Below, one piece after another: positions 7,878 through 63,148 of a DNA stretch of 64,000 nt. Position 1 is the first letter of the stretch. Every line of letters begins with the position of its first letter. The notes beneath the pieces are model-generated. The model was not told where the DNA came from, did not search any database, and saw only the letters and a list, made by a program, of their open reading frames with translations. A program made the position numbers and the translations under genes. Source of the stretch: Candidatus Schekmanbacteria bacterium (lineage in GTDB: Bacteria; Schekmanbacteria; GWA2-38-11; J061); the NCBI GenBank assembly GCA_016219965.1, contig JACRJM010000003.1:130299-194298 (forward strand), in the 5' to 3' direction.

Positions 7878-7881
7878 GGTT

Positions 7882-10629: not shown

Positions 10630-10669
10630 ATACTTTTTAAAATGACAAAATTTAAAGAGGGAAAGAAAC

Positions 10670-11182: not shown

Positions 11183-11252
11183 ATACATCGAAACATCTAT
11201 AAAGAATAATTTTGGCAATGAATAAAAATGAATAAAATGGAGGGGAATAGTT

Positions 11253-13736: not shown

Positions 13737-13798
13737 TGCTTAACGCTGTGTAACTATTTTGACTGGAATATTTTTCTGGGGACTTTTGGAGGAAAAAA

Positions 13799-14650: not shown

Positions 14651-14672
14651 AATAAAGATATGAGGTTTTGTA

Positions 14673-15197: not shown

Positions 15198-15202
15198 CCT
15201 TT

Positions 15203-16049: not shown

Positions 16050-16050
16050 T

Positions 16051-17112: not shown

Positions 17113-17190
17113 GAAGTAAAATATGTTTAAAAACTACAATAATGCGGAATGTAGCATGTATACCACTATATTCAAAGGAGGTAAAAAACC

Positions 17191-24740: not shown

Positions 24741-24825
24741 TTTCTGCTGCGTTTTCCCTTTGAGAAGGAAAGATAGTGCAGATGTAAGAATCCGTTCATT
24801 GTCTCTTAAGAATTTTGAAAATATC

Positions 24826-28525: not shown

Positions 28526-30589
28526 TTAGTTTTTTACAGGTACGAAGAATCTTGGTTTTACAGGACCTTTTTCCCCTTCAGGAGTCTGCCAGACAAGCAT
28601 GAATCTGGCGCTTCCGGACTTTTTTATTGATATATCGATCAGGTGGAATCCGGCATCAGCCTGTACGCTGTAAGTGCTGATACTATTTTCACTGCTTAAA
28701 GGATGTATCTTGGATTTGTCTATTGAAAATTCAATGTTGCCTTTGGACAAGAGAGCGAATCTGTATGTCCCGCTGGCAGGGAACAACAACATGGTATCTA
28801 TGGATATTGATCTTATTTTTTCCGGTACAATCGGATTATCCCAGTAGCCTGTCATGGCAAGCCATATTTTTTCCGGATTATCGCTGTATTCTCGCTGTAT
28901 TGACATTAATACTGATTTGCGTGAAGGTACGATTCTCCTCTCTTCGTCACGGATAATGTTCTCAATTGATTTGTAAACAGAAATAAGCTGTACCCCTTCG
29001 GATGAAACTGTGTAGTCAGGAATCATGTAATCATAGCAGAACCATTCAAGGCTTTTAAAAACTCCCTGTCTGCTGTTGAGCACCAGATAATCATAAGACT
29101 TGTTGAATGAATAGGCATCAGTCGTGCTGTATCCGTTTTCTATGAACGAACTGTCAATATATCCATTTTTATTATAAAATTTGAGCTGTCTTAATTCATC
29201 AGGCAATGCGCAATAAAGGATCTTCTTCCCTTTGTAACGCTCTTTGAGAACATAAAGAAAATCCTTATTGAAGGTATCTCCCCAGTAAGTAGTTTCAAGC
29301 TTTATCTTCTGCGCGCCACTTAACCCTCCGATCAAAATGTTATAGTATGAAAGTTCGTAGGGATGTATCATCAAGAGCGAGACAAAAGGGAATATGAGGA
29401 ATAAAGAACATGCTGCTATTCTGTGCCATACTTTTTTCCCATAGCGGTCAACAATCATAGCGGCACCTATTCCGCTTAGTCCTGCAATAAAAGTAAATGC
29501 CGGAAGGAAAAGCCGCACACTATCATATTTTGGAATACCCGGAGACGATGCTGCGCCGAGCATCACTGCTGCATTGACGAGGAAAAGCAACATCATACTC
29601 ATTTTCTGATCTGTAATTTTTCCTGATCTTTTCCCTTCTTTTATTATGTTTATAATACTTGCAATTGCCGCTATAAGCATTAATGGCGGAACAGTAAAAA
29701 TGACCATGACAGGTACATAGTGCCACGGGATATCCCAGGATTTTAATTCGCCGAGATAATAGGTGAATTTAAAATTTGTTGAAAGATCTCCTATCTGGTC
29801 TTGCTCAAAACCCATGGCACGATTAAATGTATTGTGCCAGAGCCATGGCCATGAAATAATGAATACAGGGAACGTAAAAAAAGTCATTGAGAGGAAATTC
29901 ATCTTTGCCCGTCTGTCGCGGGTAAGTATATACCAGATTACTAAAGCTGCCGGTATAAGAAGTGCATGGATCTTTGTAGAAAGAGAAAGCCCAAGCAGTA
30001 TCCCTGTTGCAAGCGCCCACCGCCTGCTTTGAAGTCCGTAAACAAATGAGAAAACCGTTAGAAACCACATAGCTGAGATTGGGGTATCCAGGGCAAAGAT
30101 ATGCGCGTGCCCGAAGACATGAGGCATAAGTATTAAAGAGACGCTTGAAAGAAGGCCTGCCATTGCGCCAAAATATTTTGAAACAAGGAGAAAAAGCAGC
30201 ATGCTCTCGATGGCAAAAAAAACTGCGGAAGGGAGTCGATATGCCCTGTATTCACCAATTACGTCTTTGAGGGAATACCATGAAAGCCCCCCCATGAACC
30301 TGGCAAGAGGAGGGTGCCAGTTTACCCTGTCTCCACCTTCTACAAGTGCGCCAAAATATTTGTCAGCAACCTCCTTAGAAGCAAAACTTAAATCTCCTCT
30401 TTTAATATCGTGCACTGCAAGTTTTAGCCAGTCTGTATAAAGCTTAGCCGCATCATCATTAATGTAGACCTCATCCCAGGATATTCCTATGTCAGTCAGG
30501 GTAAAAAGCACCGGCAGAAAGGAAAAAATAAAAACCAACAGTCCCGATATTTTCCTGTTTTCCCTTAACATGGCAGCAAGACTCTTCAT
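28526..30589 (-). CDS. GT-C fold membrane glycosyltransferase (PMT/ArnT-like) with a C-terminal periplasmic domain
   Basis: About 11 TM helices. The first-loop motif DIGISWDEVYIND (DE motif) is present. The last roughly 200 aa are soluble. Confidence 0.5.
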   Translation of the reverse strand: MKSLAAMLRENRKISGLLVFIFSFLPVLFTLTDIGISWDEVYINDDAAKLYTDWLKLAVHDIKRGDLSFASKEVADKYFGALVEGGDRVNWHPPLARFMGGLSWYSLKDVIGEYRAYRLPSAVFFAIESMLLFLLVSKYFGAMAGLLSSVSLILMPHVFGHAHIFALDTPISAMWFLTVFSFVYGLQSRRWALATGILLGLSLSTKIHALLIPAALVIWYILTRDRRAKMNFLSMTFFTFPVFIISWPWLWHNTFNRAMGFEQDQIGDLSTNFKFTYYLGELKSWDIPWHYVPVMVIFTVPPLMLIAAIASIINIIKEGKRSGKITDQKMSMMLLFLVNAAVMLGAASSPGIPKYDSVRLFLPAFTFIAGLSGIGAAMIVDRYGKKVWHRIAACSLFLIFPFVSLLMIHPYELSYYNILIGGLSGAQKIKLETTYWGDTFNKDFLYVLKERYKGKKILYCALPDELRQLKFYNKNGYIDSSFIENGYSTTDAYSFNKSYDYLVLNSRQGVFKSLEWFCYDYMIPDYTVSSEGVQLISVYKSIENIIRDEERRIVPSRKSVLMSIQREYSDNPEKIWLAMTGYWDNPIVPEKIRSISIDTMLLFPASGTYRFALLSKGNIEFSIDKSKIHPLSSENSISTYSVQADAGFHLIDISIKKSGSARFMLVWQTPEGEKGPVKPRFFVPVKN

Positions 30590-32055
30590 TTCAATTTTAT
30601 AATAGCGCCGTAGGGTGTAGCCTCAATCTCTTTATAGTTTTTGTCTCTTCTAATCTTCTCTGCTTCTATTGAGGCAACAAGCACTGCTCCTTTTTTTTGG
30701 AGGACACCGATGTTGCCAGATGTTACATCCTCTATATCAACATACCAGCCTCTTCTGCCTGAAAGGTAAAAAAGCGACGGTACTGGGGTGACAGCTTCTG
30801 TTCCTGCAACTATGATAAGATCATTTTGGCTGGTCGCTCCGGCTATCTGTTCAGAAGTTTTGAGCAGCCTTTTGTCAACCTTGTAAAATCCATTTTCCAT
30901 GTACATTTTCCCTTCGAGTGTATAATAGCCTGAAAAAAGAATGGCAGAGGCAAATATTAAAACAACCGCTGCTTTTGCAATCACAGATGTTCCACTGGAT
31001 TGCAAAACAGGCATCATCCCCTTTCCTGCAATTATTGAGAATGGTACAAGAAAGGGCAAAAGATAATAATCATGGGAGTAAAATCCTTTAGCAACAAGGA
31101 TTGCAACAGCAGGAAGGAGAGTGAGCCAGATATAAATCCAGTTTCTCTTTGAATCTTTTTCTTCGATTAGCAAACCTGCACAAAATGTAATCAGTCCTAC
31201 AGGAGTTATCATAAGCGTAAAAAGCCGTTTAAAAATTTTTTCATAAAATAAAACACTTCTCCAGTCATAACCTGATGTGAATTTAAGAAACCCGCCGGAG
31301 AGTATTCCGAAGGTGAGGCCTGTTTTCTGATAAATAAAATATGCATACACATACCAGAAAATCGGAGGAAGCAATGCTATAGAACTGAAGACCGAGATAT
31401 CTTTCCCAAATTTTTTTAAATTGGACGAGTTCCGGTATATGATGAATGCAAAGACAACCATCAGATAAAGTACAAGGACCTTGACAAGCAGGGCAAGGGC
31501 AAAGAATAGCGCCGAGAGATGAATATAATATTTTCTCCCTCCTTCCTTCCACAGCAGCAGCATATAAAGTGACAACACAATAAAAAAGATGAGAAGCATT
31601 TCAGGCATGAAAGTCCTCGAATAATAGATAGAGAGAGGAGAGAATGTGAAAAAGAAAAGGGAAGCACAGGCACAATCTTCCCCATATAGTATCCGGACTA
31701 TCAGGTAGAATACAACCGCAGACAAAGAAAACAGAAAGACAGAGAATAATCTTCCTAAAATGTCATATTCCCCTGCTATCCTGTACAATAAAGAAACTGA
31801 ATACTGAAAAAGCGGGAATTCGGATTCAACAAGACCGGAAGAATCTCCTCCCCAGTCTATCTGGGGTGAAAGGATAGAAGTTCCGTTAAGATAAAAATTC
31901 CTTGCCATTGACGCGGTGTCGCACTGTCTCCAGTTCTGATGGTCGGCAAGAGGAGAATCTATTTTATAGAGTCTTACAGCTATGCCGGAGCCAATTATTA
32001 TGGCAGCTAATAAAAAATATATCCGGACTTTTTTCAGATTAGTTTTACTTTTCAT
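30586..32055 (-). CDS. GT-C fold membrane glycosyltransferase (GT39/ArnT-like)
   Basis: The N-terminal loop motif WRQCDTASMARNFY is typical of bacterial PMT_2/ArnT-like proteins. Polytopic membrane protein. Confidence 0.55.
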   Translation of the reverse strand: MKSKTNLKKVRIYFLLAAIIIGSGIAVRLYKIDSPLADHQNWRQCDTASMARNFYLNGTSILSPQIDWGGDSSGLVESEFPLFQYSVSLLYRIAGEYDILGRLFSVFLFSLSAVVFYLIVRILYGEDCACASLFFFTFSPLSIYYSRTFMPEMLLIFFIVLSLYMLLLWKEGGRKYYIHLSALFFALALLVKVLVLYLMVVFAFIIYRNSSNLKKFGKDISVFSSIALLPPIFWYVYAYFIYQKTGLTFGILSGGFLKFTSGYDWRSVLFYEKIFKRLFTLMITPVGLITFCAGLLIEEKDSKRNWIYIWLTLLPAVAILVAKGFYSHDYYLLPFLVPFSIIAGKGMMPVLQSSGTSVIAKAAVVLIFASAILFSGYYTLEGKMYMENGFYKVDKRLLKTSEQIAGATSQNDLIIVAGTEAVTPVPSLFYLSGRRGWYVDIEDVTSGNIGVLQKKGAVLVASIEAEKIRRDKNYKEIEATPYGAIIKLK

Positions 32056-32126: not shown

Positions 32127-33272
32127 ATGAAGATTGCCTATATAACCCACGAGACTTTCTTTCCTCCAAAAGGAGGCGGTGCCGTACGGGTACTGAATAT
32201 AGCAAAGGCTTTTGCAAAAAAAGGGCATGAGGTAAAATTATTTGCGCCCTATGGGGATTTATATAGCGGAGAAAAGGAAATAATCCCGGATGTAGCTTTC
32301 ATCCCTGTCTCTAAGATTGAAAGGTTTAAAACAAAAAACAAGGAAACTGCTTATATAAAATTTCTGTTCAGTTTGACTTCTCTTCTTATTAAAGAGAAGT
32401 TTGACCTTCTCTTTTCTCATATTGCAGTAGCAGGAACCTCCGGAGCCCTTGTTAAGACCATAAAGAGGAAACCCGCAGTAATAGACCTTGACGATATAAT
32501 ATCAGGACTTTCCGGAATATCTTTTGTCCAGAGATATGGACCTCCTTTTGAATTTTTTATTCCGGTTTTTTATGACAGAGTCATATGCATGTCTGAGTCT
32601 CTCGCCAAAAGGGTCTCCATGGTAAAAAAAGACCATGTCTTTGTAGTCCCTCATGGCGCAGACTTTGGGCTATTTTATCCGGGGGGAGAAAGCAGGAAAG
32701 AAAGACACTTTGTTTTTTCAGGCGGCATAGAAAAACATGACGGAGTTGATTTGATTCTCATGGCAGCAAAGGAGCTGATTGATAAATATCCTGATATGAA
32801 GATCACTATTTTAGGCGATGGGAGCGAACTTTCACGAAATATGGAATTAAGCAGGGAGCTTGGACTGTCCAGCATTGTAGAGTTTAAAGGCTGGATAGAG
32901 CATGAGCGAGTCCCTGAATATCTGAGGCACGCGTGTGCCGGGATTGTTTCTGACAGAAGGCGGGCGGCGACTGAAGTAGCCCTTGTAGTAAGAGGCGTCG
33001 AATATATGGCATCAGGTATCCCTGTAATAGCTCCTGACCACGGCGGAACACGCGAGCTGCTGGGTGATGACGGTGAAAGAGGCATTATATTCAGGAGCGG
33101 TGATTATCCGGACCTTGCTTCCAAAATGGCATGGGTTATGGATAATCCTGACGAAGCTTATAATATTGGAATAAAAGGACGCAAGTATGCAGAAGTCAAT
33201 TATTGCTGGGAAAATAATGCGGAGCGCATAGTTAAGATATGCGAAGCAGTATATAGAGAGAAAAGCTCTTAG
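32127..33272 (+). CDS. GT4 family (GT-B) glycosyltransferase
   Basis: N-terminal HETFFPPKGGGAVRVLNIA. The C-terminal E-x7-E region is …GIPVIAPDHGGTRELL…. Confidence 0.75.
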   Translation: MKIAYITHETFFPPKGGGAVRVLNIAKAFAKKGHEVKLFAPYGDLYSGEKEIIPDVAFIPVSKIERFKTKNKETAYIKFLFSLTSLLIKEKFDLLFSHIAVAGTSGALVKTIKRKPAVIDLDDIISGLSGISFVQRYGPPFEFFIPVFYDRVICMSESLAKRVSMVKKDHVFVVPHGADFGLFYPGGESRKERHFVFSGGIEKHDGVDLILMAAKELIDKYPDMKITILGDGSELSRNMELSRELGLSSIVEFKGWIEHERVPEYLRHACAGIVSDRRRAATEVALVVRGVEYMASGIPVIAPDHGGTRELLGDDGERGIIFRSGDYPDLASKMAWVMDNPDEAYNIGIKGRKYAEVNYCWENNAERIVKICEAVYREKSS

Positions 33273-33275
33273 AAA

Positions 33276-34226
33276 ATGTATATCCTTATCACCATTGATT
33301 GTGAAAATACTTACCGGCAATTCCCATTCAATGACTTCACATTAGTAAATATGGATGGGAAATCATATGGCATCCCCATGATAATGGAAGCTCTTGACAA
33401 AAGGGGAATAAAGGGGAATTTTTTTCTCGATACCTGCGCGGCAGAATATTACGGAAATGATACTGTTGCCTCTGTAGCTTCTCTTATTTCTGAACAAGGA
33501 CATGAAGTTGAACTTCATACACACCCTCTTGACGGGGATTTCTGCCGGATAGGCCGGGAAAAGCAAAAAGAGATAATCGAGAGAGGAATTGCCCTTATAA
33601 AATCTGTTGCCCGAAAACCGCCATACGCATTCAGAGCAGGAAGCTATATGATGGATGAATCAGGGCTGGCAATATTGAAAGAATATGGAATAACGGCAGA
33701 CTGCAGCAACTATTATGGCGTTTCACCCTTGTCAGTTACCAGGAATGCAGTAAAAAAAATAAACGGGATTTATGAGTTCCCTGTTTCCTTCTTCAGACTA
33801 CATATTTCCCCGGCAATAAGCACTTTCAATAGAATTGCAGGCACACATTTGTTGTATAACGGGAACTGCAAACTCGACATAAACTGGATGAACATTTCAG
33901 GGCTTAAAAGAGTTATAGATACTTTTGCACTTAATGGAACAGCTGTCCTTGTAATATTCCTGCACAGTTACAGCTTTGCAGATGAAAAAAAACTGGCTCA
34001 GGGGAAACGCGGCAAAGATGTAATCAAAGGCGAAGTAATAAAAAGGTTTAACGGTCTTCTGGATTATTTTAGTTCAGAAAATGAATTCGAAGTTGTTACG
34101 ATAAAATGGCTTCTTGAAAAAATGAATGAGGATAACAACTTTAGCGAAAAAATCCTCTCTGCCCCTGATTATGTTCCCCATGATATCTGGGGAATTGATG
34201 TCAGTCATCTAAGGTTAAAAAGATAG
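33276..34226 (+). CDS. Polysaccharide deacetylase-like (CE4-related) protein
   Basis: ILITIDCE…HEVELHTHP resembles a variant NodB motif 1/2. Confidence 0.4.
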   Translation: MYILITIDCENTYRQFPFNDFTLVNMDGKSYGIPMIMEALDKRGIKGNFFLDTCAAEYYGNDTVASVASLISEQGHEVELHTHPLDGDFCRIGREKQKEIIERGIALIKSVARKPPYAFRAGSYMMDESGLAILKEYGITADCSNYYGVSPLSVTRNAVKKINGIYEFPVSFFRLHISPAISTFNRIAGTHLLYNGNCKLDINWMNISGLKRVIDTFALNGTAVLVIFLHSYSFADEKKLAQGKRGKDVIKGEVIKRFNGLLDYFSSENEFEVVTIKWLLEKMNEDNNFSEKILSAPDYVPHDIWGIDVSHLRLKR

Positions 34227-34240
34227 CATTGAGCGGGAAA

Positions 34241-35155
34241 TTATTTCTCTTTCTTCTCTGAAAAGTACTCAACCACCATTTCTCCCAAAAATCCAAGCGA
34301 GATTACCTGCACCCCAAGTATCATCAAGGCAACACCTAAAATGAGCATCGGAATATGTTCCTTGATGTCGTAAACGCTGAGCATGTAATCAGATATTACC
34401 TGGAGCATATTGATAAGAAACCCAAATGAGAAAATAGTTCCTCCGGTGGCACCGAAAAAATACATTGGCTTCTTCATGAATGACAGGCGGAATTTCACGA
34501 CGACCAGATCTATTATGCCTTCAAAAAGCCTCCTTGCACCAAACTTAGATTTGCCTGAGTTTCTCTCATACCAGTTTGTTTCAACTTCTTTGACTTTGAA
34601 ACCTTCGTGGTAAGCAATTGGAATAATATAACGGTGCCAGTTTGCCCGGAGAGGCAGTTCATTTATTACCTCTTTCCGGAAAGCTTTTATCCAGTTCTGG
34701 TCCTTTGCTTTTACTCCGAAAAGAAGGTAACAGACAAAATTATAAAGCCTTGATGCCAGTACCTTGAATTCTTTTCTCCCTACCCGGCAGCCAACTGCTA
34801 AATCATAACCTTCATTTATAACACTTAACAGTTTCGGAATGTCTTCCACCGGGTCAGACTGCATGTCGGACGGTAAAAATATAATAATGTCTCCGTCTGC
34901 ATGACTGAATCCTGTAACAAGGGCACTTGTAAGTCCTGTTCTTTTTCTGTGGTGAAATACTCTAATATTTTCATTTTTTCTCTTTAGCGATTCTGCTATC
35001 TCTCCGGTCTTATCACTGCTCCCGTCATTGATTATTATTATATTCCCCTTGAGGGATTCCTGGTGGAATGACTCATTAATCCTGCCTACAACCTTTTCAA
35101 GATTTCCTTCTTCATTGCATGCCGGAAGTACAACGCTTATTAGTGTGTCCATCAC
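34241..35155 (-). CDS. Polyprenol-phosphate glycosyltransferase (GT2; DPM1/ArnC/GtrB-like)
   Basis: ISVVLPACNEEGNL…IIINDGSSDKT…DGD with two C-terminal TM helices. This is the characteristic GtrB-type architecture. Confidence 0.75.
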   Translation of the reverse strand: MMDTLISVVLPACNEEGNLEKVVGRINESFHQESLKGNIIIINDGSSDKTGEIAESLKRKNENIRVFHHRKRTGLTSALVTGFSHADGDIIIFLPSDMQSDPVEDIPKLLSVINEGYDLAVGCRVGRKEFKVLASRLYNFVCYLLFGVKAKDQNWIKAFRKEVINELPLRANWHRYIIPIAYHEGFKVKEVETNWYERNSGKSKFGARRLFEGIIDLVVVKFRLSFMKKPMYFFGATGGTIFSFGFLINMLQVISDYMLSVYDIKEHIPMLILGVALMILGVQVISLGFLGEMVVEYFSEKKEK

Positions 35156-37029
35156 CTGTATTCCACTTCTATCAGATGTTTCCCTTGTTCAAGTATTATA
35201 AGCCCTTTTTCCCTGTAAGAATCAGAACTTAGAGAATTGCCATCAACTTTTATCTCTACTATATCACTGCTCTGCTGTAATTTCAAAGTTTGCCCCTGAG
35301 CTAATGCTTCTGCATCAATTTTAAGGCTCTTGCCTGTCCTGTATGAGAATACCCTGCTTTTTTTCCGTATATTGAAATAATCGACGAGATTGTTTATCCC
35401 TGTTTTCCATATCCTGTCATCCCCTGATATAAAAGCAGTTATTCTTTCCAGTTTTTCCTTTGATTTTGCATTTGTAACACAGTAGTGAGGATGGAAGAGA
35501 AGGACTACCGGAGAATTGAATTTTTCCGCTGAATCCCTGATTATAGATTCAATCTGCTCAACTGAAAGCTTCCCGTGCGGTTCATGAACCTGAAACGGCA
35601 GTTCGTAAATCTGTGCGGGTGTCCCGTTATCATTTTCCGGGTTATATGGGAACCCTGTGCCAAATATATATCCACCCATATTTCTGCCGGGGCCGAATGA
35701 AGAGTCTATCTTGATCCCTGCCTGTTGAAGAATCAGAAATATCTTTGCTGGATCACTTTCTGCAACAAGGTAGTGTATGCGCGAAACAGAGGCTGGTTCT
35801 GATCCGCTTATTTCACTGAGCTTCTTTATTTGTGATGATAAAGACTTCTCTTTCTCCATGTGCATCCCTGTAACAGTTGCATGTAAATGAAAGCGGTTCC
35901 AATGAATACCTGTTCCAAGTCTGCGGTTTCTTAAAAGTTCAAATGTTGAATGTCTGGCAGGAGTGGAAGACATCATAAAGAACATAGGATTCAGTTTTGA
36001 TACATCTCCCATTGAAAGAACGTCTGCTGCCTCGTCACCGCAGTAATCCTCATCAAATGTAAGAATAGCTGCGGAAGATTTTCCATCAGGGTAATACCAC
36101 CATGTAGGCACTTTTTCACATTCTGCCGCAGTCAAAATTATGGAGCGTTCGAAAATATCGAGGAACGGCATTGCCTCATATCTTTTATTATTGAGACAAC
36201 TGGAATCACTAGTCTGCCTGTGGCTTAGACTGATAAGGGAAATCGCTTTCGATATAATTTGTTTTTTACTCTTTTCCCCGCCCTGAGAAAGCAGAAAGCG
36301 CCAATCTGAGATTTTGAAAAATATGCTTACCACTATTCCTTTCCCGGACCGGCATCTCAGGATTATGGGAAGGCCATCAACCTCTGATATTATTTCTTCA
36401 TTTTCAACCTGCGATGTAATCTGTCTGCATAAGAGCTTGGGCAGTCCAGTAGGAAAGAGGCTCTTGTCGCTGCCGCGGCTGGAGAACCTAATCCCGTTCA
36501 GATTTATGTTAATTAAAGGACCTGTTGAAACCCCTGTTAAAAGCTCGATCCTGTTATCAGGACATTCGAGAAGAACAGTTCTCCCTGTTTCCCTCACCAA
36601 ACCCAGGAGTTTATTGATTCTTTTTGAAGAAGAGGATATTTCTTCAACTGCTTCAGCAGTAAATATTATGACCCGGCCATTCTGAGGGATAAAGTTTTCA
36701 TCAGAAGTAAGCCTGTACATACCAAAAAACCCGCATTCTTTTGAAAGTATGTTGAGCCACTCCATTTCATGGCTATCTTTCCTGCTCCCTGTAAACGAAG
36801 AAATAACCAATATGAAATCTGCCTCTGTGTTTTGAACTTCCTCGATATTTGAGGCTGTCATCTGAGCCGGATTCTCTTTGATCAAAAGGGGAAGAAGAAT
36901 AAAAGCAATAATAGCAACAATTACAGCAAATGCGACCGGCACAATTATCGGTAAAACTTTAAGGAATGGAGAAATGACTGCAATAAACAAAAAAAGGTAA
37001 AAAAAGATTTTAAGTATATTTCTTCCCAT
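35152..37029 (-). CDS. Membrane-anchored protein of unknown function (possible deacetylase-like core)
   Basis: N-terminal TM helices followed by a large extracytoplasmic domain. The ILTFDEDYCGDEA segment is reminiscent of the CE4 motif. Overlaps the GT2 gene by 4 nt. Confidence 0.3.
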   Translation of the reverse strand: MGRNILKIFFYLFLFIAVISPFLKVLPIIVPVAFAVIVAIIAFILLPLLIKENPAQMTASNIEEVQNTEADFILVISSFTGSRKDSHEMEWLNILSKECGFFGMYRLTSDENFIPQNGRVIIFTAEAVEEISSSSKRINKLLGLVRETGRTVLLECPDNRIELLTGVSTGPLININLNGIRFSSRGSDKSLFPTGLPKLLCRQITSQVENEEIISEVDGLPIILRCRSGKGIVVSIFFKISDWRFLLSQGGEKSKKQIISKAISLISLSHRQTSDSSCLNNKRYEAMPFLDIFERSIILTAAECEKVPTWWYYPDGKSSAAILTFDEDYCGDEAADVLSMGDVSKLNPMFFMMSSTPARHSTFELLRNRRLGTGIHWNRFHLHATVTGMHMEKEKSLSSQIKKLSEISGSEPASVSRIHYLVAESDPAKIFLILQQAGIKIDSSFGPGRNMGGYIFGTGFPYNPENDNGTPAQIYELPFQVHEPHGKLSVEQIESIIRDSAEKFNSPVVLLFHPHYCVTNAKSKEKLERITAFISGDDRIWKTGINNLVDYFNIRKKSRVFSYRTGKSLKIDAEALAQGQTLKLQQSSDIVEIKVDGNSLSSDSYREKGLIILEQGKHLIEVEYR

Positions 37030-55177: not shown

Positions 55178-55206
55178 TTGACACATCTTCCATGCTTTGG
55201 TAGAGT
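55178..55206 (+). promoter_or_regulatory. Sigma-70-like promoter (TTGACA-N17-TAGAGT)
   Basis: -35 TTGACA at 55178-55183 and -10 TAGAGT at 55201-55206. About 28 nt upstream of the 55234 ATG. Confidence 0.4.
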
Positions 55207-55233
55207 TAGCTCAAGCTAACGGAAGGAAACTAC

Positions 55234-55881
55234 ATGTCCATATTTATACGAAACATTCTTATAGACCTCGATGAAGCACAGGAAAACGTCATGCGCGTTT
55301 CAGCCCACATGAAAGACGTTGTCCATGATATCAGGGTGAGCCTTTTCGTGTCGCTTCCTGATTACACCATAATAGATGTTTCCCTTGAAATGAGGGAAAC
55401 CCCTGAGAAGGCATGCCAGAAGCTTAACGATGTGATAGGGAGTATAAAGGGGATTAAGATCGAAGCAGGGTTTAATACAAAGATCAAAAGGCTTCTCTCA
55501 GGGAAAACAGGGTGTACTAACGTGCTAAGCCTTCTTACAGTTGCCGCTCCTCTTGTCATAAATATATCATGGTTTCTCTACCGCAAAAAAAACAAGATGA
55601 GCGACGAGGAATACCAGAAGATGAAGCGGGCTGACATGATAGACAAATGCATAGCCTTCAGCGAGACGTCAGATGCCGAGGCTGCAAGAACATCGCTTTC
55701 TTCCGGTGAAGAGGCTATTGTGCGTGACTGCGCAAGGTGCTCTTCAGTGACAAAAGGGGACAACATAAAAAAAAGGCTTACCAATAACATTATGTCCCTT
55801 TCAAAGCTCTTTGATATTCCTGAAGCAACCGTTGAAGAACTTATAAAAGATGTGGAGCTTCTGGAGAAAAAAAACGCCTAA
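55234..55881 (+). CDS. DUF2889-like protein
   Basis: IFIRNILIDL…VSLFVSLPDYTIIDVSLEMRETPEKAC…GCTNVLSLL resembles the DUF2889 pattern. This is a family-level guess. Confidence 0.35.
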   Translation: MSIFIRNILIDLDEAQENVMRVSAHMKDVVHDIRVSLFVSLPDYTIIDVSLEMRETPEKACQKLNDVIGSIKGIKIEAGFNTKIKRLLSGKTGCTNVLSLLTVAAPLVINISWFLYRKKNKMSDEEYQKMKRADMIDKCIAFSETSDAEAARTSLSSGEEAIVRDCARCSSVTKGDNIKKRLTNNIMSLSKLFDIPEATVEELIKDVELLEKKNA

Positions 55882-55899
55882 CCTTTTAAGCTGTGTTCT

Positions 55900-57006
55900 A
55901 TGAGCCGTGAAAACTGGATAGCACTTAATCTTATTGCCGGTATCGAAGGGCGTGTTTTCACCTCGCTGATTTCGCATTTTGGTTCTCCTTCGAATGTACT
56001 TGCCGCTTCAAAAGATGAACTCCTTAAGGTAAATGGAATAAGCAGGAAAGAAGCTGATGCAGTAGTTTCCATGAAAGGAGGAGAAAGGCTCGATGCAGAG
56101 CTTGCGGCTATTAACAAAAACAATATAAAGGTAACAACGCTTGAAGATGAGGATTATCCTGCACTTTTAAAGGAAATAGATACGCCTCCTCCGGTCATTT
56201 ATGTAAAAGGCAGCCTGCCATCTCAATTTCTCGGGATTGCCGTAGTGGGAACAAGAAAACCGTCAAGCTACGGTCTTCTAATGGCAGAGAGGCTGGTATC
56301 TGAAATTGCAGGGGCAGGGATAGTAACAGTGAGCGGTATGGCGCGAGGTATTGATACGGCAGCGCACAAGTCTGCCCTTTCCAAAGGAGGATTCACCGTA
56401 GCAGTGCTCGGTTGCGGCGTTGACAGGGTTTACCCGCCGGAGAATAAAAAACTTTATGATGAGATCGCAGATAAGGGAGCAGTTATTTCCGAATTCCCGA
56501 TGGGAACCTTTCCCCATAAAGCCAATTTCCCGAGACGTAACCGCATAATAAGCGGCATGAGCAAGGCTGCCCTTATTATAGAAGCCGGAGAAAAGAGCGG
56601 CACCCTTATCACTGCCCGCTTTGCCCTTGAGCAGGGACGCGATGTTTTAGCTGTACCGGGAAGAGTGACATCTTCAGAGAGCAGGGGAACAAACGACCTC
56701 ATAAGAAAAGGCGCAAGACTTGTTGAGACTTTCAGTGATATCTGTGAAGAGCTTGATCTCAAAATCAAGACAGACAAAAAAAATTCAACGAAAAATACAG
56801 AGAAAAACAATCTGACAACTGTTCCGCAAAACCTCAGCGATGAAGAAAGAAGACTGCTCGGTGTTTTAAGCGATGAACCGCTTCATATAGATAAGATTGT
56901 CCGTAATTCAGGTTTGCCAGCCGGGAAAGCATCATCTATACTTATGAAGCTTGAAATAGAAGGGCTTATCCGGCAAACAGCCGGGAAACTTTTTTTAAGA
57001 TTGTGA
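55900..57006 (+). CDS. dprA: DNA-processing protein DprA (SMF family)
   Basis: Rossmann-like DprA core (GIAVVGTRKPSSYG…SGMARGIDTAAH) plus a C-terminal winged-helix domain. Confidence 0.8.
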   Translation: MSRENWIALNLIAGIEGRVFTSLISHFGSPSNVLAASKDELLKVNGISRKEADAVVSMKGGERLDAELAAINKNNIKVTTLEDEDYPALLKEIDTPPPVIYVKGSLPSQFLGIAVVGTRKPSSYGLLMAERLVSEIAGAGIVTVSGMARGIDTAAHKSALSKGGFTVAVLGCGVDRVYPPENKKLYDEIADKGAVISEFPMGTFPHKANFPRRNRIISGMSKAALIIEAGEKSGTLITARFALEQGRDVLAVPGRVTSSESRGTNDLIRKGARLVETFSDICEELDLKIKTDKKNSTKNTEKNNLTTVPQNLSDEERRLLGVLSDEPLHIDKIVRNSGLPAGKASSILMKLEIEGLIRQTAGKLFLRL

Positions 57007-57013
57007 GGTCGGA

Positions 57014-59227
57014 TTGACTAAGCAGACAGAGACTACACCGAAGAAGAGAAGGACTATCATAGCGATAGTAAGCTTCGTCCTCCTCTTTGTTGTTCTCCTT
57101 ACAATGGAGATTTCAACGCAGAACATAGCGACGTCATCTCCCATCGCCAACTATGTAATCTTTTATTCCTTTTACAACATTAATTTTATCCTTCTTCTTG
57201 TGCTCTTCTATCTTGTCATAAGAAACCTCGTAAAACTGTATTTTGAGCGGCAGCGGCGTGTACCCGGAGCCAAGTTCAGGACAAAGCTGATAGTTTCCTT
57301 TTTCCTTCTTACCATAATCCCATCGGTGCTGCTCTTCCTGTTTGCCCGGGTCCTGATAGCCCAGACAATAGAATACTGGTTCAGTGTCCCCATAGAGCAG
57401 TCATTGAAAGGGGCAATAGATGTTTCAGACCAGTACAACAAAACCCGCCTTGAGAAGTCGCTGCATTTTTCTTCGCTTATAGGAAAAACCGTAGTACGCA
57501 GGAACCTTCTTGCTCCGCGCAACAACACCCATCTGAAGAATTATCTTAATGCAAAACTCAGGGAGTATGACCTTGACTCTATTTTTATCTACAATGATAA
57601 AGGAAATGAGATAATCCATATAGACACCGGAAAGAAAGGGGAACCCAAACCTGACAAGAAACTCATAGCGCAGTCATTGCTAGGGAAGAAATATACCAAG
57701 GTTGAATCTGACGTTGAAGATGATTCGATTTTTGGGACTTTCACAATGAAGGAGGGGGGGAATAAAACAATCGGCGTGGTGGCTGTAGGCTACTACCTGC
57801 CCAAAAGCACATCACAGGATATAAGGTCTGTTGCCCTTGCTTTCAAAGATTACAGGCAGAAAGAGATATTTAAAAAGCCTATCATGGACAACTACATTGC
57901 CATGTTCGCCATCGTGACTGTGCTCGTCATATTTGCAGCAATGTGGTTCGGGTTCCAGCTTGCAAAGGAGATAACAGTACCCATACAGCAGCTTGCCGAA
58001 GGAACGCATGCGGTCGCAGAAGGGAACCTTGATTTCCATATAGATATCAAAGTCAAGGACAGAAGCCAGGATGAGATAGGAATACTTGTCGATTCCTTCA
58101 ATAAGATGACGCATGATTTAAAGATCCACAAGCTTGAGCTTGAAGACAAGAACATGAGCCTTGAGAATACCAACAGGGAACTTGACAGGAGGAGAAGCTA
58201 CATTGAAACCGTTCTTGAAACAGTAAGCACCGGAGTTATATCACTTGACGCATGGGGAAAGATAACAACCATCAATGATGCGGCAGAAGACATGCTCCAG
58301 ATAAGAGGGGAGGATTATGCCGGCAAACATTACCAGCAGGCTTTCGGGAAATCCCAGCTTGAGCCGCTGAAAAAAGTCATAAACGAGCTTGAGGAAAAAA
58401 GGGACCGAAGCATTCAGCAGGAGATTAACCTTAACATCAATGGCGAAGTTTTCACCTTAATGACAAATATCAGGGAACTTTACGACGGGAATGGCACGCT
58501 GATGGGAATGGTCATGGTGCTCGATAACGTTACTGAACTAGTCCGTGCACAAAGAGTGGCTGCATGGAGGGAGGTCGCAAGGATGATCGCCCATGAGATA
58601 AAGAACCCACTCACCCCGATAAAACTTTCTGCCCAGAGGCTCAAAAAACGTTATTTTCAGAAGATCAGCGGAGACGATGCGGTCTTTGAAGAATGTGTTG
58701 ATACTATCATACAGGAGGTGGATGATTTAAAGGGCATGATTAATGAATTTTCAAATTTTGCACGCATGCCGGTTTTCGACCCTGTAGATACCAATATCGA
58801 GAATGTCATAAATGAAACTATTTCTCTTTACAAAACAAGCATGAAAGATGTTAAAATAGACCTTGTTTCGGGCGGGGAGATGCCTTCGCTGAAACTTGAC
58901 CCTGATCAGATAAAACGTGTATTCATCAACCTTGTCGATAATGCGATTGAGGCAATGGGGGGCAAGGGAGAGATAAAAGTAGCGCTTGAATATTTAAAAG
59001 ATTTGCAGACTGTTAAAATAGAGTTTTCCGACAATGGAGCCGGCATTGCTCCAAACATCAAGGAAAAGATGTTTATGCCCTATTTTTCGACCAAGAAAAA
59101 GGGAACGGGGCTGGGGCTGGCCATAGTGAACACCATAATCTCGGAACACCGGGGTTACATAAGGGTAAAAGACAACAATCCGCGGGGGACGACTTTTGTA
59201 ATTGAGCTCCCCGTGAGAGTAGCTTAA
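57014..59227 (+). CDS. ntrY: NtrY-like sensor histidine kinase (TM–HAMP–PAS–HisKA–HATPase)
   Basis: Four N-terminal TM helices, HAMP, PAS, H-box MIAHEIKNPLTPI and HATPase N/G boxes. The ORF-track start is TTG 57014; an ATG alternative lies at about 57104. Confidence 0.7.
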   Translation: MTKQTETTPKKRRTIIAIVSFVLLFVVLLTMEISTQNIATSSPIANYVIFYSFYNINFILLLVLFYLVIRNLVKLYFERQRRVPGAKFRTKLIVSFFLLTIIPSVLLFLFARVLIAQTIEYWFSVPIEQSLKGAIDVSDQYNKTRLEKSLHFSSLIGKTVVRRNLLAPRNNTHLKNYLNAKLREYDLDSIFIYNDKGNEIIHIDTGKKGEPKPDKKLIAQSLLGKKYTKVESDVEDDSIFGTFTMKEGGNKTIGVVAVGYYLPKSTSQDIRSVALAFKDYRQKEIFKKPIMDNYIAMFAIVTVLVIFAAMWFGFQLAKEITVPIQQLAEGTHAVAEGNLDFHIDIKVKDRSQDEIGILVDSFNKMTHDLKIHKLELEDKNMSLENTNRELDRRRSYIETVLETVSTGVISLDAWGKITTINDAAEDMLQIRGEDYAGKHYQQAFGKSQLEPLKKVINELEEKRDRSIQQEINLNINGEVFTLMTNIRELYDGNGTLMGMVMVLDNVTELVRAQRVAAWREVARMIAHEIKNPLTPIKLSAQRLKKRYFQKISGDDAVFEECVDTIIQEVDDLKGMINEFSNFARMPVFDPVDTNIENVINETISLYKTSMKDVKIDLVSGGEMPSLKLDPDQIKRVFINLVDNAIEAMGGKGEIKVALEYLKDLQTVKIEFSDNGAGIAPNIKEKMFMPYFSTKKKGTGLGLAIVNTIISEHRGYIRVKDNNPRGTTFVIELPVRVA

Positions 59228-59241
59228 TAGCGGAGAAAAAA

Positions 59242-61440
59242 GTGAGAAAAGGACACATATTAGTTGTTGATGATGAAAACAACATAGGCACAACCCTTGA
59301 AGGGATTCTTACTGACGAAGGGTATGAAGTGTCGAAGGCTGAAAACGGGCTTCAGGCACTTGACATGATAAAGCGGGTCCCTCCGGATGTGGTATTGCTT
59401 GATATCTGGATGCCGGGAATGGACGGGATAGAAGTCTTAAAAAGCATAAAAGAACATGAGAGCGATACTGAGGTGGTTATAATGTCAGGGCATGGCTCTA
59501 TTGATACCGCCGTAAGGGCCATCAAGCTGGGTGCATTTGATTTCATCGAGAAACCTCTTTCGCTTGACTCCCTGCTTTCTACAATCAACCATGCCCTTGA
59601 AAGACAGAGGACAGCAAAAGAAAGCCAGGAACTTAAAAGAGAACTTCTTCAGCGGTATGAGCTTATAGGTGAGAATCCGAAAATACAGGAGGCACGAAAG
59701 CTTATCAGCGCAGCCGCAATCTCAAATGCAGGGGTATTGATAGAAGGGGAACATGGCACAGGCAAAGAACTTGTGGCAAGGACCATTCATATCAACAGCA
59801 TCAGACGCAACAGGCCTTTTGTAAAAGTAAATTGTGCTGCTCTTCCTGATGATATAATAGGGAATGAAATGTTCGGCTGCGACTCAAACAACGGAGGAGG
59901 AATAAGCAAAAGGGGAAAATTTGAGCTTGCAGAAGACGGCACTCTCTTCCTCGACGGCATAGAAAAGCTGGACATCAATGTTCAGGAGACAATCCTGAAA
60001 GTTCTTCAGACAGGAAAATTCATGCGGATTAACGGGAAGAGGCTTCTCCCTGTCAACTTCAGGATAATAGCTGCAAGCGAAAAGGACATTCAGAAACTGA
60101 TTGAAGAGAACAAATTTTCCAGTGAGCTCTATTCATTCATATCTACCTTTGTCATATATCTGCCCCCCCTGCGCGACAGAAAGGATGACATCCCGTCACT
60201 TGTAAATTACTTTAGCCGCGAGCTTACACAGGATTACGGCAGAGGTGTTAAGGAAATCGACGACAATGCCATGGCAGCCCTTGTGACTTTTGACTGGCCC
60301 GGCAATGTGAAAGAAATCAAGAATATTATCGAGCGTCTGGCAATATCTGTTCCCACAGGGAGGATATCTGCCGACGATATCCCTGTTTCGATCCGCGGAA
60401 TAACGCCAAAGACTTCCCAGTACCAGTACAACGGCTACTCATTGAAAGACGCGAGACAGAAATGGGAAAAGGAATACCTCATTCACTGTCTGACCATGAC
60501 AGGATGGGACCTCAAGAAGACCGCAAAGGAAATGGGAATAACCTGCAAGACCCTTGAGAAGCACATAAAATCCTTCGGTCTTAAAAAACCTAAGAAAGAG
60601 ACAAGCACTGCTGCAAGAATCCAGCGCACACTAAAGACAAGCGTAGTCCTCTGCGGTCAGGGGCTCCATTCCGGACTTAAGACAGGTCTGATACTTGTCC
60701 CCCAGAATCCAAACGCCGGTATCGTATTTGCTAATGTTTCTACCGGAGAAACCATGACAGCAGTTCTTGATAACGTGGAATCAACAGACTATGCCACATC
60801 GTTAAAGTGCGGCAAGTCCCATGTAAAAACAATAGAACATATCATGGCTGTGCTTAATATTTACGGGATAAACAACCTTCTCATAAAGATAACCGACGAG
60901 GTTCCCATAATGGATGGTTCATCCCTTGATTTCTGTGAACTTATTGAGGATGGGGGCATTCTTGAGCAGGATGAGTTTATAGAGGAAATAGTCATAGACA
61001 AGGTCATAGTTCACGGCAAGGAAAGTCCCAAGGAAAAGTATATTAAAATAGAGCCCTGCGATAAGTTTTCCGTGAAGTATATAATGGATTATCCTCCGCC
61101 CATCGGCAAACAGGAAATGGATTATGTTTTCAAGGGGGCCGAGGATTTTAAAAAGAACATTGCCCCTGCCAGAACCTTCGGTTTCCTCAAGGACGTAGAA
61201 TACCTTGAGAAGAAGGGGCTGATCAGCGGAGGAAAGCTTCACAATGTCATCCTCCTTGATAACGAGAAGGTAATAAACACTGAGCTGAGGTTCAAGAATG
61301 AGTTTGCAAGGCACAAGGTGCTCGACATTATCGGCGATTTCTATCTCCTCGGCAGACCGCTAAGGGGCAAAATTACCGCGCACCTTACAGGCCATTCAGA
61401 AAACATAGCTCTTCTTAATAAGATACGTTCTATCTACTGA
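59242..61440 (+). CDS. NtrX-like response regulator (REC–sigma54-type AAA+–HTH) fused in frame to a complete LpxC (UDP-3-O-acyl-GlcNAc deacetylase) domain
   Basis: Residues 1-457 carry REC (ILVVDDE…LLDIWMPGMDG), Walker A GEHGTGKE and a Fis-type HTH. Residues about 470-732 align over their whole length with E. coli LpxC: IQRTLK…GQGLHSG, TIEHIMAV (zinc-ligand EH), RTFGF, ARHKVLDIIGD, TGHSEN. There is no stop codon and no in-frame start codon at the junction. Confidence 0.7.
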   Translation: MRKGHILVVDDENNIGTTLEGILTDEGYEVSKAENGLQALDMIKRVPPDVVLLDIWMPGMDGIEVLKSIKEHESDTEVVIMSGHGSIDTAVRAIKLGAFDFIEKPLSLDSLLSTINHALERQRTAKESQELKRELLQRYELIGENPKIQEARKLISAAAISNAGVLIEGEHGTGKELVARTIHINSIRRNRPFVKVNCAALPDDIIGNEMFGCDSNNGGGISKRGKFELAEDGTLFLDGIEKLDINVQETILKVLQTGKFMRINGKRLLPVNFRIIAASEKDIQKLIEENKFSSELYSFISTFVIYLPPLRDRKDDIPSLVNYFSRELTQDYGRGVKEIDDNAMAALVTFDWPGNVKEIKNIIERLAISVPTGRISADDIPVSIRGITPKTSQYQYNGYSLKDARQKWEKEYLIHCLTMTGWDLKKTAKEMGITCKTLEKHIKSFGLKKPKKETSTAARIQRTLKTSVVLCGQGLHSGLKTGLILVPQNPNAGIVFANVSTGETMTAVLDNVESTDYATSLKCGKSHVKTIEHIMAVLNIYGINNLLIKITDEVPIMDGSSLDFCELIEDGGILEQDEFIEEIVIDKVIVHGKESPKEKYIKIEPCDKFSVKYIMDYPPPIGKQEMDYVFKGAEDFKKNIAPARTFGFLKDVEYLEKKGLISGGKLHNVILLDNEKVINTELRFKNEFARHKVLDIIGDFYLLGRPLRGKITAHLTGHSENIALLNKIRSIY

Positions 61441-61473
61441 TACCTTTTATTTTTACTAAGAGTTGGAGTGTAA

Positions 61474-62511
61474 ATGGATAACAAAAAAATAGATTACAGA
61501 TCGTCAGGAGTGAACATAGATGCCGGCAATGAGTTCGTGCGGCGAATAAAGCCGCTTACGAAATCGACTTTTATAGAAGGCGTTGTTTCAGATATCGGGG
61601 GGTTCGGCGGATTTTTCAGGCTCCCCCAGGGATTGAAGAATCCCCTCCTTGTGGCGACTACGGACGGAGTCGGCACAAAGCTCAAGGTTGCCTTTGATGC
61701 AGGAATACATACCACCATCGGAATAGACCTTGTCGCCATGTGCGCAAATGACCTTATAGCCACAGGTGCTACACCTCTTTTCTTCCTTGATTACTTTGCA
61801 ACAGGGGCGCTCACAATAGAGCAGGGAGTCGATGTAGTAAAAGGGATTACCGAGGGGTGCCGCGAAGCCGAGATGGCTCTCATAGGCGGCGAGACCGCTG
61901 AAATGCCGGGTTTTTATAAAAATGGCGAATATGATATTGCAGGATTTGCGGTAGGTGTCGTTGAAGAAGGTAAAGCCCTCCCATCCAAGGACATAAGGAC
62001 AGATGACTGTCTTATTGGAATCGCATCCAACGGACTTCACAGCAACGGCTATTCCCTTGCAAGGAAGTTGTTTTTTGATGAGCTTTTAATGTCTGTAGAA
62101 GACGATTTCCCCGGAGGTCAGGGGCAGTCGGTGGGCAATGTGCTTTTAAGACCTACCCGCATATACGTCAAGCTTATGAAATCCCTTTTAAAATCTTACC
62201 ATATAAAGGCTGTCGCACATATAACAGGCGGAGGATTCATTGACAACATACCGCGCGTGCTTCCGGATATGGCTACTGCCATAATCGAAGAGGGAAGCTG
62301 GGAGATGCCCGATGTTTTCCGCTTCATAGTCGAGACAGGAAAAATAGAGAGGAATGAACTCTACAGGACATTCAATATGGGAATAGGACTTGTCCTTGTG
62401 GTAAGCCGGGAATCCTGTGATGATGTTCTTTCCCTTGTCAAGGCTTGCGGCGACAAGGGGTGGAAAATCGGAAGAATAGAACGAGGGGAAAAAGAAGTAG
62501 TGATAAGATGA
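61474..62511 (+). CDS. purM: Phosphoribosylformylglycinamidine cyclo-ligase (AIR synthetase)
   Basis: Canonical PurM sequence (DYRSSGVNIDAGNE…ATTDGVGTKL…). Confidence 0.9.
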   Translation: MDNKKIDYRSSGVNIDAGNEFVRRIKPLTKSTFIEGVVSDIGGFGGFFRLPQGLKNPLLVATTDGVGTKLKVAFDAGIHTTIGIDLVAMCANDLIATGATPLFFLDYFATGALTIEQGVDVVKGITEGCREAEMALIGGETAEMPGFYKNGEYDIAGFAVGVVEEGKALPSKDIRTDDCLIGIASNGLHSNGYSLARKLFFDELLMSVEDDFPGGQGQSVGNVLLRPTRIYVKLMKSLLKSYHIKAVAHITGGGFIDNIPRVLPDMATAIIEEGSWEMPDVFRFIVETGKIERNELYRTFNMGIGLVLVVSRESCDDVLSLVKACGDKGWKIGRIERGEKEVVIR

Positions 62512-62515
62512 CATT

Positions 62516-63148
62516 ATGAAAAACATCGGCATACTTGTTTCAGGACGCGGGAGCAACCTCCAGGCATTGATTGACTCAATCTCAAAGAGAGAGATAAATG
62601 GCACCATTGCCATAGTTGTCAGCAATATTGAAGATGCGCAGGCCTTGAACCGTGCAGCCTCCGCCGGTATCAGGACAGCCGTAGTTGACCACAGGAAGTT
62701 TAAATCGCGCGAAGATTTTGAGAAGGAACTTATAAGGGTTCTCGATGATTCAAAAGTCGACCTTGTATGCCTTGCAGGTTTCATGCGTGTCCTTACATCC
62801 TTTTTTATAAGGAACTACAGGAACAGAATCATAAATATCCATCCTGCGCTTCTCCCGTCATTCCCAGGTATCCATGCACAGAAGCAGGCTCTGGATTATG
62901 GGGTGAAGGTCAGCGGATGTACTGTCCATTTTGTTGACGAAGGGACCGACACTGGCCCTATCATACTTCAGAAGACTGTACCTGTTTACGATGCGGACGA
63001 TGAAGAGAGCCTTTCAGAGAGGATACTTGCCGAAGAGCATAAACTCTACGTTGAAGCAGTCAAACTTTTCTGCAGTGACAGAATCATTGTGAACGGCCGG
63101 AAAGTTTTCATAAAACAGGATTATGAAGAGGATAAAACCACGAGATAA
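62516..63148 (+). CDS. purN: Phosphoribosylglycinamide formyltransferase
   Basis: IGILVSGRGSNLQALID and the NIHPALLPSFPG motif of the formyl-transferase fold. Confidence 0.85.
   Translation: MKNIGILVSGRGSNLQALIDSISKREINGTIAIVVSNIEDAQALNRAASAGIRTAVVDHRKFKSREDFEKELIRVLDDSKVDLVCLAGFMRVLTSFFIRNYRNRIINIHPALLPSFPGIHAQKQALDYGVKVSGCTVHFVDEGTDTGPIILQKTVPVYDADDEESLSERILAEEHKLYVEAVKLFCSDRIIVNGRKVFIKQDYEEDKTTR

Follow-up and report, generated by a model that had tools for sequence, protein, structure and literature searches.

An in-frame fusion of an NtrX-like response regulator with LpxC in Candidatus Schekmanbacteria belongs to a phylum-spanning protein family

The NtrY/NtrX two-component system, described in Brucella abortus, Rhodobacter sphaeroides and Caulobacter crescentus, pairs a sensor kinase built from NtrY_N, HAMP, PAS, HisKA and HATPase modules with a regulator that comprises a receiver (REC), an AAA+ domain without the GAFTGA motif and a Fis-type helix-turn-helix (HTH); it is functionally tied to the cell envelope and to lpxC expression (PMC7240162, PMC12444477). 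Deletion of ntrYX in R. sphaeroides raises lpxC mRNA 8.8-fold and lipopolysaccharide (LPS) about two-fold (PMC7240162, PMC12444477). No NtrX peak was seen at lpxC by chromatin immunoprecipitation in R. sphaeroides (PMC7240162), and a 2025 review of lipid A regulation lists, for R. sphaeroides and C. crescentus, transcriptional control of lpxC by NtrYX (PMC12444477). Here, we describe a locus with the same kinase and regulator modules in a 64,000-nt stretch of DNA (the window) from Candidatus Schekmanbacteria (assembly GCA_016219965.1, contig JACRJM010000003.1). It differs from NtrY/NtrX in that a complete LpxC is attached C-terminally to the regulator; whilst the alphaproteobacterial effect on lpxC is transcriptional and reported to be indirect, in the fusion the enzyme is part of the regulator.

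LpxC, the UDP-3-O-acyl-N-acetylglucosamine deacetylase of lipid A synthesis, is a major antibiotic target and, to our knowledge, its regulation outside the Enterobacteria is largely unknown. Either an excess or a shortage of the enzyme is toxic in E. coli and Pseudomonas (PMC3333781). For the control of LpxC, the 2025 review lists proteolysis, a LapB homologue and transcriptional control, and the words 'fusion' and 'fused' are absent from it (PMC12444477). In the open-access literature, we found no published description of LpxC fused to a receiver or to NtrX, or of LpxC as a receiver output. With the Desulfovibrio vulgaris regulator DVU2934 (REC-AAA-DNA-binding domain, listed as 'ntrX', with the kinase DVU2931), lpxC was the single target found by DNA-affinity-purified chip (DAP-chip), and binding to the lpxC promoter was confirmed by gel shift (PMC3333781). 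Compared by description and not by sequence, this pair resembles the Schekmanbacteria locus in combining a kinase with a regulator of 'ntrX' type and in its tie to lpxC, and it comes from the same phylum as Syntrophobacter and Desulfomonile, which carry the fusion (below); it differs in that regulator and lpxC are separate genes, with control at the promoter. By analogy, we regard the fusion as the gene-fusion counterpart of a link seen experimentally in these unfused systems.

The gene is a single + strand open reading frame (ORF) at 59242..61440, with a GTG start and a TGA stop, which encodes 732 amino acids (aa) in the order REC, AAA+, HTH, linker, LpxC. This continuous ORF had been claimed in the initial annotation, and the Pfam and NCBIfam domain matches bear it out. 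The start codon is 14 nt past the stop of an upstream kinase gene; a Shine-Dalgarno-like GGAG (59232..59235, + strand; read from the sequence) stands 6 nt before the GTG, and the intervening 14-mer has the same letters in an independent assembly (L087, below). The protein matches GenBank MBI5374391.1 (P0392, from a Candidatus Schekmanbacteria metagenome-assembled genome, MAG) residue for residue, where it is annotated simply as LpxC. A scan of 54800-63400 for promoters and terminators gave counts no higher than in shuffled sequence.

A separate start for LpxC, which the initial annotation had also thought to be missing, is indeed lacking: there is no in-frame ATG, GTG or TTG across residues 432-504, an ATC (I460) takes the position expected for the LpxC initiator methionine, and both alternative frames at the junction are closed by many stops. 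Translation of LpxC from an internal start was rejected on these grounds. An ATG at residue 431 was rejected too, since the AAGGA that directly adjoins it is too close to act as a ribosome-binding site. On this reading of the sequence, the product of the gene is at once a two-component response regulator and LpxC, in a single polypeptide.

The receiver domain (aa 5-118; 59254..59595, + strand; Pfam Response_reg 6-115, E = 6.5e-33) has a complete phospho-acceptor pocket: the phospho-acceptor D54 (codon GAT, 59401-59403), the acidic pair D10/D11, S82 and K104. These positions, with serine or threonine at 82, are kept throughout the aligned fusions, with a single sequence having E-D for D10-D11. 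The REC-AAA+ linker that follows (aa 119-140; 59596..59661, + strand) is predicted by AlphaFold2 (AF2) to prolong helix alpha5, with low confidence at 127-136.

At the C-terminus, the LpxC domain (aa 460-732; 60619..61437, + strand) is complete by both Pfam and NCBIfam: the Pfam LpxC (PF03331) match (461-728, E = 6.7e-82) covers model positions 1-266 of 268, and the score against the lpxC equivalog TIGR00325 is 240-244 bits, above the cutoff of 187. The domain aligns to residues 5-275 of Pseudomonas aeruginosa LpxC with the EH, RTFGF, HK..D and GH motifs in register, in agreement with the initial annotation, in which the catalytic and zinc-ligand motifs EH (E532, H533), RTFGF (644-648), HKVLD (691-695) and TGHSEN (716-721) were noted as kept. 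The zinc ligands are H533, H691 and D695, and the catalytic or helper residues E532, H718, T645, K692 and D699; F646 is also present (codons: E532/H533, 60835-60840; H691/K692, 61312-61317; D695, 61324-61326; H718, 61393-61395). Conservation of the zinc-ligand and catalytic residues is 90% or more in the fused as well as in the stand-alone LpxC set, and in a 121-protein alignment of the fusion family these residues are invariant. A complete phospho-acceptor pocket and an intact catalytic domain are therefore carried by the same polypeptide. There is no C-terminal tail, as the protein stops 4 residues beyond the Pfam LpxC domain.

No second lpxC was found in the 64-kb window by tblastn, and this fused LpxC would be the working LpxC of the cell. 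LpxC is also known as one domain within a larger polypeptide in LpxC-FabZ proteins (PRK13188). The partner there is a C-terminal metabolic enzyme, whereas the partner here is an N-terminal signalling module; the PRK13188 model matches the LpxC part alone (208 bits against a cutoff of 465) and there is no C-terminal FabZ domain.

Between receiver and enzyme is an atypical AAA+ module (aa 141-392; 59662..60417, + strand), identified by Pfam as a Sigma54_activat core (141-305, E = 1.1e-46) and an AAA_lid_14 (311-392). Its Walker A motif is intact (GEHGTGKE). Where canonical activators carry GAFTGA, the query aligns with SNNGGG, and GAFTGA occurs in none of the 121 aligned family members. The Walker B motif, LFLDEI in canonical activators, is LFLDGI in the query (Glu to Gly) and YLSN in most family members, and sensor II is GNVKEI rather than GNVREL (Arg to Lys). 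The query thus lacks all three of the features looked for in a sigma-54 enhancer-binding protein, i.e. GAFTGA, the Walker B Asp-Glu and the sensor II Arg; the replaced Walker B Glu and sensor II Arg also set it apart from NtrY/NtrX. Judged by these motifs, the AAA+ domain of this Schekmanbacteria protein cannot contact sigma-54, and it probably does not hydrolyse ATP.

The Fis-type HTH (aa 405-447; 60454..60582, + strand) gives a weak Pfam HTH_8 match (409-443; 23.8 bits, cutoff 22) and is modelled by AF2 as three helices (401-419, 424-431 and 435-444); several relatives have lost it. Joining it to LpxC is a Lys-rich 12-aa linker, KKPKKETSTAAR (aa 448-459; 60583..60618, + strand), which is just as first described; it holds no in-frame start codon, and its predicted local distance difference test (pLDDT) score falls below 50 at 451-456. 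For the N-terminal 450 residues, NtrX (NF051870) is the best NCBIfam family at 394.6 bits, below the equivalog cutoff of 600, so that by score the protein falls outside the NtrX equivalog. By architecture it is of NtrX type (REC-AAA+-HTH without GAFTGA), and its gene adjoins one for an NtrY-type kinase. The AAA+ and HTH are, on the comparative evidence, accessory, because whole lineages have deleted them yet kept REC and LpxC. They probably add dimerisation or DNA binding, for example for autoregulation as in Brucella abortus NtrX, an atypical enhancer-binding protein with a variant GAFTGA that represses its own promoter (PMC6158489).

The independent assembly L087 (ENA ERZ27247322) contains the same 2196-nt frame with the same neighbours, and differs from the window by 77 substitutions (3.5%) without an indel. 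The changes are synonymous at 63 and non-synonymous at 14, which gives a ratio of non-synonymous to synonymous rates (dN/dS) of 0.058 for the whole gene. By domain, dN/dS is 0.00 for REC (0 non-synonymous and 14 synonymous changes), 0.028 for LpxC, which we regard as the most constrained part of the protein, and about 0.10 for both the AAA+ and the HTH.

The search for orthologous fusions that the initial annotation had proposed found them in abundance, in related and in distant genomes. A collection of 5.8 billion proteins yielded at least 120 clusters of full-length homologues (99-100% query cover, 45-98% identity, 701-773 aa), those with names coming from Schekmanbacteria, Nitrospinae/Nitrospinota, Tectomicrobia, Nitromaritima, Nitrohelix and Thermodesulfobacteriota. 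Conservation was measured as mean pairwise identity in an alignment of the query with 120 full-length homologues. It is 0.68 for REC and 0.69 for LpxC, and falls to 0.46 for the HTH, 0.40 for the AAA+ lid, 0.39 for the AAA+ core and 0.15-0.19 for the linkers (REC-AAA+ linker, 19%; Lys-rich linker, 15%). In canonical NtrC-family activators, the AAA+ core is the best-conserved module; the pattern in the fusion family is the reverse. As judged from the alignment, the conserved and selected unit of the family is REC plus LpxC. The idea of a fusion stood, refined in one respect: the conserved partner is the receiver rather than NtrX as a whole, and the AAA+ and HTH are degenerate and often lost.

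The GTDB genome collection was scanned with an LpxC-domain alignment, and loci were sampled among the 600 matches listed, one per genome, and analysed by tblastn and frame extension. Among the matches listed, each LpxC that is at least 44% identical to this domain had an N-terminal receiver, and all those at 41% identity or less were stand-alone. The fused loci sampled include long forms of about 665-745 aa and short REC-LpxC forms of about 420-450 aa, the latter in Syntrophobacter(aceae), Binatia, Thermoanaerobaculia, Holophagales, Terriglobia, Desulfocapsaceae and a 1.09-Mb 'Deltaproteobacteria' chromosome. By Pfam, the short forms consist of Response_reg and LpxC only, and some Nitrospinaceae and Desulfomonile proteins are REC-AAA-LpxC without an HTH. 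A homologue search from one short form added at least 120 further clusters of 428-444 aa.

Separately from the pattern scan, 1.84 billion cluster representatives were searched exhaustively with phmmer, and the top hits were typed using custom domain hidden Markov models. Four architectures were found: REC-AAA-HTH-LpxC; REC-AAA-LpxC; REC-HTH-LpxC, represented by P0247 (505 aa, Nitrospinota, 35 cluster members) and P0259 (491 aa, Entotheonellia); and REC-LpxC, with 17 representatives among the top hits. Only three or four of the top 45 hits were stand-alone LpxCs. One further hit, P0243 (615 aa), starts with Met and is AAA-HTH-LpxC without a receiver; the gene call may be truncated, or this may be a variant that lacks the receiver. 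Far from being confined to this genome, the fusion belongs to a family that spans phyla and is listed in databases as 'LpxC'.

In a neighbour-joining tree of 87 LpxC domains, which is simple and arbitrarily rooted, all 32 REC-fused domains fall in one clade (bootstrap 100/100) with long and short forms interleaved. Monophyly of the long forms, or of the short forms, has a bootstrap of 0/100 in either case, and no single loss event is claimed. The receivers of the short forms are 43-56% identical to this REC, compared with only 27-32% for the other receivers of the window, and in L012, the sole short form scanned, NtrX was the top NCBIfam response-regulator match of the receiver. Since the LpxC tree and the receiver similarities agree, a single origin of the fusion is indicated. 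On these comparisons, the fusion is old, and common to Schekmanbacteria, Nitrospinota, Tectomicrobia, several lineages of Desulfobacterota/Thermodesulfobacteriota, Binatia and part of the Acidobacteriota. Its most likely source is the joining of lpxC to the gene for an ntrX-type regulator. In the simplest history, this would have happened once, long ago, and the modules in the middle would since have been eroded or deleted repeatedly.

A divergent subgroup that includes L030 (Desulfocapsaceae), P0276 and P0281 lies basal in the fused clade; in it, ARSFNT is found for ARTFGF, TSH for TGH, and NVDGS or NIDGS for IMDGS. L030 is REC-fused, and P0276 and P0281 are stand-alone.

The presumed cognate kinase is encoded directly upstream of the fusion (57014..59227, + strand), as the initial annotation had proposed. 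It is an NtrY-like sensor histidine kinase of 737 aa with, by Pfam, a transmembrane/NtrY_N region, HAMP (316-369), PAS (397-503), HisKA (518-585) and HATPase (629-735). The NtrY_N match in the window is weak (22.4 bits, just below the cutoff of 23.2); it is above the cutoff in the kinases of L012 and L020, and is recorded in that of L005. An NtrY-like kinase gene lies directly upstream in 13 of 31 fused loci, which include long and short forms and some without any DNA-binding domain. DUF4390 precedes the NtrY-like kinase in L002 and L005.

Gene order around the fusion in the window is RNase R, DUF2889, dprA, NtrY-like kinase, fusion, purM, purN and a peptidyl-prolyl isomerase (PPIase). The locus of a 67%-identical homologue (L004) has the same order from DUF2889 to PPIase (window 55234..63148; L004 6009..14207), and before it, on the same strand, bamA, skp, lpxD, fabZ, lpxA, a GFO/IDH-family gene, lpxB and DUF374. 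This lpxD-fabZ-lpxA-lpxB lipid A cluster has no lpxC of its own; the fusion lies a few genes downstream. No conserved protease gene was found in the fused-gene neighbourhoods examined. Among the loci compared, purN and/or purM recur downstream of the fusion across several phyla (L002, L005, L010, L015, L017 and L018).

An AF2 model of the 732-aa protein, made with the 121-sequence alignment, has well-folded domains (mean pLDDT 84) and a predicted template modelling score (pTM) of 0.46, with low-confidence linkers at 127-136, 388-399 and 451-456. The model of a short REC-LpxC (P0121, 100 sequences) has a pTM of 0.85 despite a disordered 29-residue linker (127-155), and for this reason suggests that the receiver packs in a defined way on LpxC in the short form. 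Nine residues (V469, T481, G482, H539, Y541, K549, C565, L671 and T680) are kept across the fused clade and seldom occur in stand-alone LpxCs; they are candidates for the REC/LpxC interface.

The explanation that we favour, and consider reasonably likely, is that LpxC is the output domain of a response regulator and that NtrY-type signalling is thereby coupled to lipid A flux. The NtrY-like kinase encoded upstream would phosphorylate receiver D54; phosphorylation would shift the conformation, packing or oligomeric state of the receiver; and this change would make the tethered LpxC more or less active, or perhaps more or less stable. Lipid A flux would in this way be set post-translationally by a signal from the membrane or envelope. 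What the data establish is the uninterrupted frame, the identity of each domain, the preserved catalytic and phospho-acceptor residues, their conservation across the family and the adjoining kinase gene. Both the phosphotransfer from NtrY and the allosteric or phosphorylation-dependent control of LpxC are steps that we infer from sequence. REC-LpxC can be viewed as the selected unit because identity is high in these two domains whilst the middle modules are eroded or lost. A receiver welded to LpxC, kept for long in at least six phylum-level lineages and often accompanied by an NtrY-type kinase, suggests that phosphorylation directly switches the flux into lipid A.

Several observations weigh against this explanation. 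In the Schekmanbacteria lineage, selection continues to constrain the AAA+ and HTH (dN/dS about 0.1) and the Walker A motif is intact; therefore, DNA-binding regulation may still be the main role of the protein. In the AF2 model of the 732-aa long form, the domains have no confident mutual arrangement, and the stand-alone LpxCs P0276 and P0281 are close to the fused clade. The kinase is not in the neighbourhood in the Nitrospinota loci (including the complete Ca. Nitrohelix genome), nor in those of Desulfomonile and the Acidobacteriota. The earlier proposal of a coupling between NtrY sensing and the synthesis of lipid A has comparative support and stands as a hypothesis; a kinase gene adjoins the fusion in only ~40% of the sampled loci.

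Among other explanations, an artefact in which an assembly indel or a missed stop joins separate ntrX and lpxC genes has a probability close to nil. Such errors or pseudogenes do occur in MAGs, as in a Thermodesulfobacteriota relative with a frame break inside the gene (L007, 2607..4807), where REC-AAA lies in another frame than AAA-lid-HTH-LpxC, reflecting a pseudogene or an assembly error. However, the diverged L087 copy keeps the frame with few non-synonymous changes, unbroken homologues number in the hundreds across NCBI, JGI, ENA and Logan assemblies and form at least 120 clusters, ATC replaces the LpxC start with both other frames closed, and the domain E-values rule out chance matches. 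A sequencing error that hides a stop and an LpxC start, which had been named at the outset as what could undo the fusion, is ruled out by the same evidence. It is also unlikely, though with several points in its favour, that the fusion is a passive tether, i.e. that the NtrX part is an ordinary DNA-binding regulator and LpxC is unregulated, with the fusion ensuring co-expression, the coupling being transcriptional and no allostery involved. Known NtrX proteins act on transcription (PMC6158489, PMC3333781), the long form has a detectable HTH, its AAA+ and HTH are under purifying selection, its AF2 model has no fixed interdomain arrangement, and its linker is disordered and not conserved. Against this, many lineages keep an intact receiver on LpxC without a DNA-binding domain, often beside an NtrY-like kinase; the receiver in REC-LpxC and REC-AAA-LpxC has no other output to control. 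In addition, REC is as conserved as LpxC whilst the transcription-factor modules decay, and the high pTM of the short form would speak against a passive tether.

Receiver domains can serve in proteolytic targeting, as do RssB and CpdR, and the fused receiver might be a phosphorylation-dependent degron or adaptor for LpxC turnover, a functional equivalent of FtsH/LapB control; we consider this improbable. In E. coli, the LpxC level is set by proteolysis via a C-terminal degron (PMC12444477, PMC3333781). As the fused LpxC has no C-terminal tail, proteolysis would need a different handle; nevertheless, neither the sequence nor the neighbourhoods examined give any sign of a protease partner, and direct gating would account no less well for the compact REC/LpxC packing that is predicted. 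Very improbable, too, is a paralogue in which the LpxC-like domain senses a ligand or deacetylates another substrate and a separate stand-alone LpxC makes lipid A. The fused domains do form a separate clade with nine residues of their own, and are only about 39% identical to stand-alone LpxCs. Yet the domain scores above the LpxC equivalog cutoff, keeps all catalytic and zinc residues and is under strong constraint (the LpxC dN/dS above), and no second lpxC was found in the window or in the L004 lipid A cluster. Moreover, the complete 1.09-Mb chromosome CP070817.1 (L009) retains the REC-LpxC gene, and redundancy is unlikely there because the genome is so small.

If LpxC is indeed the output domain, then the fusion likely follows, by analogy, the logic of CheB-type regulators, in which phosphorylation gates the catalytic domain. 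It shares with CheB, PleD/WspR (GGDEF) and RpfG (HD-GYP) an N-terminal receiver, a flexible linker and a C-terminal enzyme. It differs in that the output domain is no signalling enzyme but a zinc amidase from lipid A biosynthesis, and in that the long form keeps relics of a transcription factor between receiver and enzyme. The contrast with FtsH/LapB control in E. coli is of another kind: the fusion is without the C-terminal degron, and the proposed signal is His-Asp phosphotransfer to the fused receiver.

More tentatively, and with somewhat less than even confidence, REC-LpxC proteins could be response regulators of a new class: the committed enzyme of lipid A synthesis would be under the direct gating of His-Asp phosphotransfer, a way of controlling the outer membrane that would occur in several phyla and be distinct from the described controls of LpxC. 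The NtrYX-lpxC control in Desulfovibrio and the alphaproteobacteria would then be the unfused version of the same ancient circuit, and NtrY would primarily be a sensor of envelope/LPS homeostasis. For the puzzling connection of NtrYX with the envelope or lpxC in Rhodobacter, Caulobacter and Desulfovibrio, the fusion may serve as a natural 'Rosetta stone'. At about 430 aa, REC-LpxC proteins are small and look soluble, and standard assays exist for LpxC. Database labels of the family are either 'LpxC' or 'NtrX', and automated reconstructions of pathways or regulons therefore miss half of the protein.

Elsewhere in the window are three PMT/ArnT-like (PMT_2) membrane glycosyltransferase genes (3916..5541, 28526..30589 and 30586..32055, all on the - strand). 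They are grouped with family-2 (GT2) and family-4 (GT4) glycosyltransferases, two polysaccharide deacetylases and radical SAM/SPASM genes (also 23766..25731 and 32127..34226). The group has the look of a region for modifying envelope glycans, and shares the window with the lipid A regulator. An ORF of 967 aa (18944..21850, - strand) has the unusual pairing of a B12-binding radical SAM (32-366) with a family-2 glycosyltransferase (552-690), and one of 624 aa (35152..37029, - strand) has no Pfam match at E <= 1e-5. A chemotaxis cluster (6852..18045, + strand) encodes a CheA with two Hpt stretches (7882..10629), a CheR, an HDOD protein, a methyl-accepting chemotaxis protein with two HAMP domains and a CZB zinc-binding domain (11253..13736), and a CheB (16051..17112), i.e. 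a classical REC-enzyme fusion in the same window. In 4-kb windows, the G+C content has its minimum (0.338) at 4001-8000; otherwise, it is about 0.37-0.40 over the first 28 kb and climbs to reach 0.446 over the last 8 kb.

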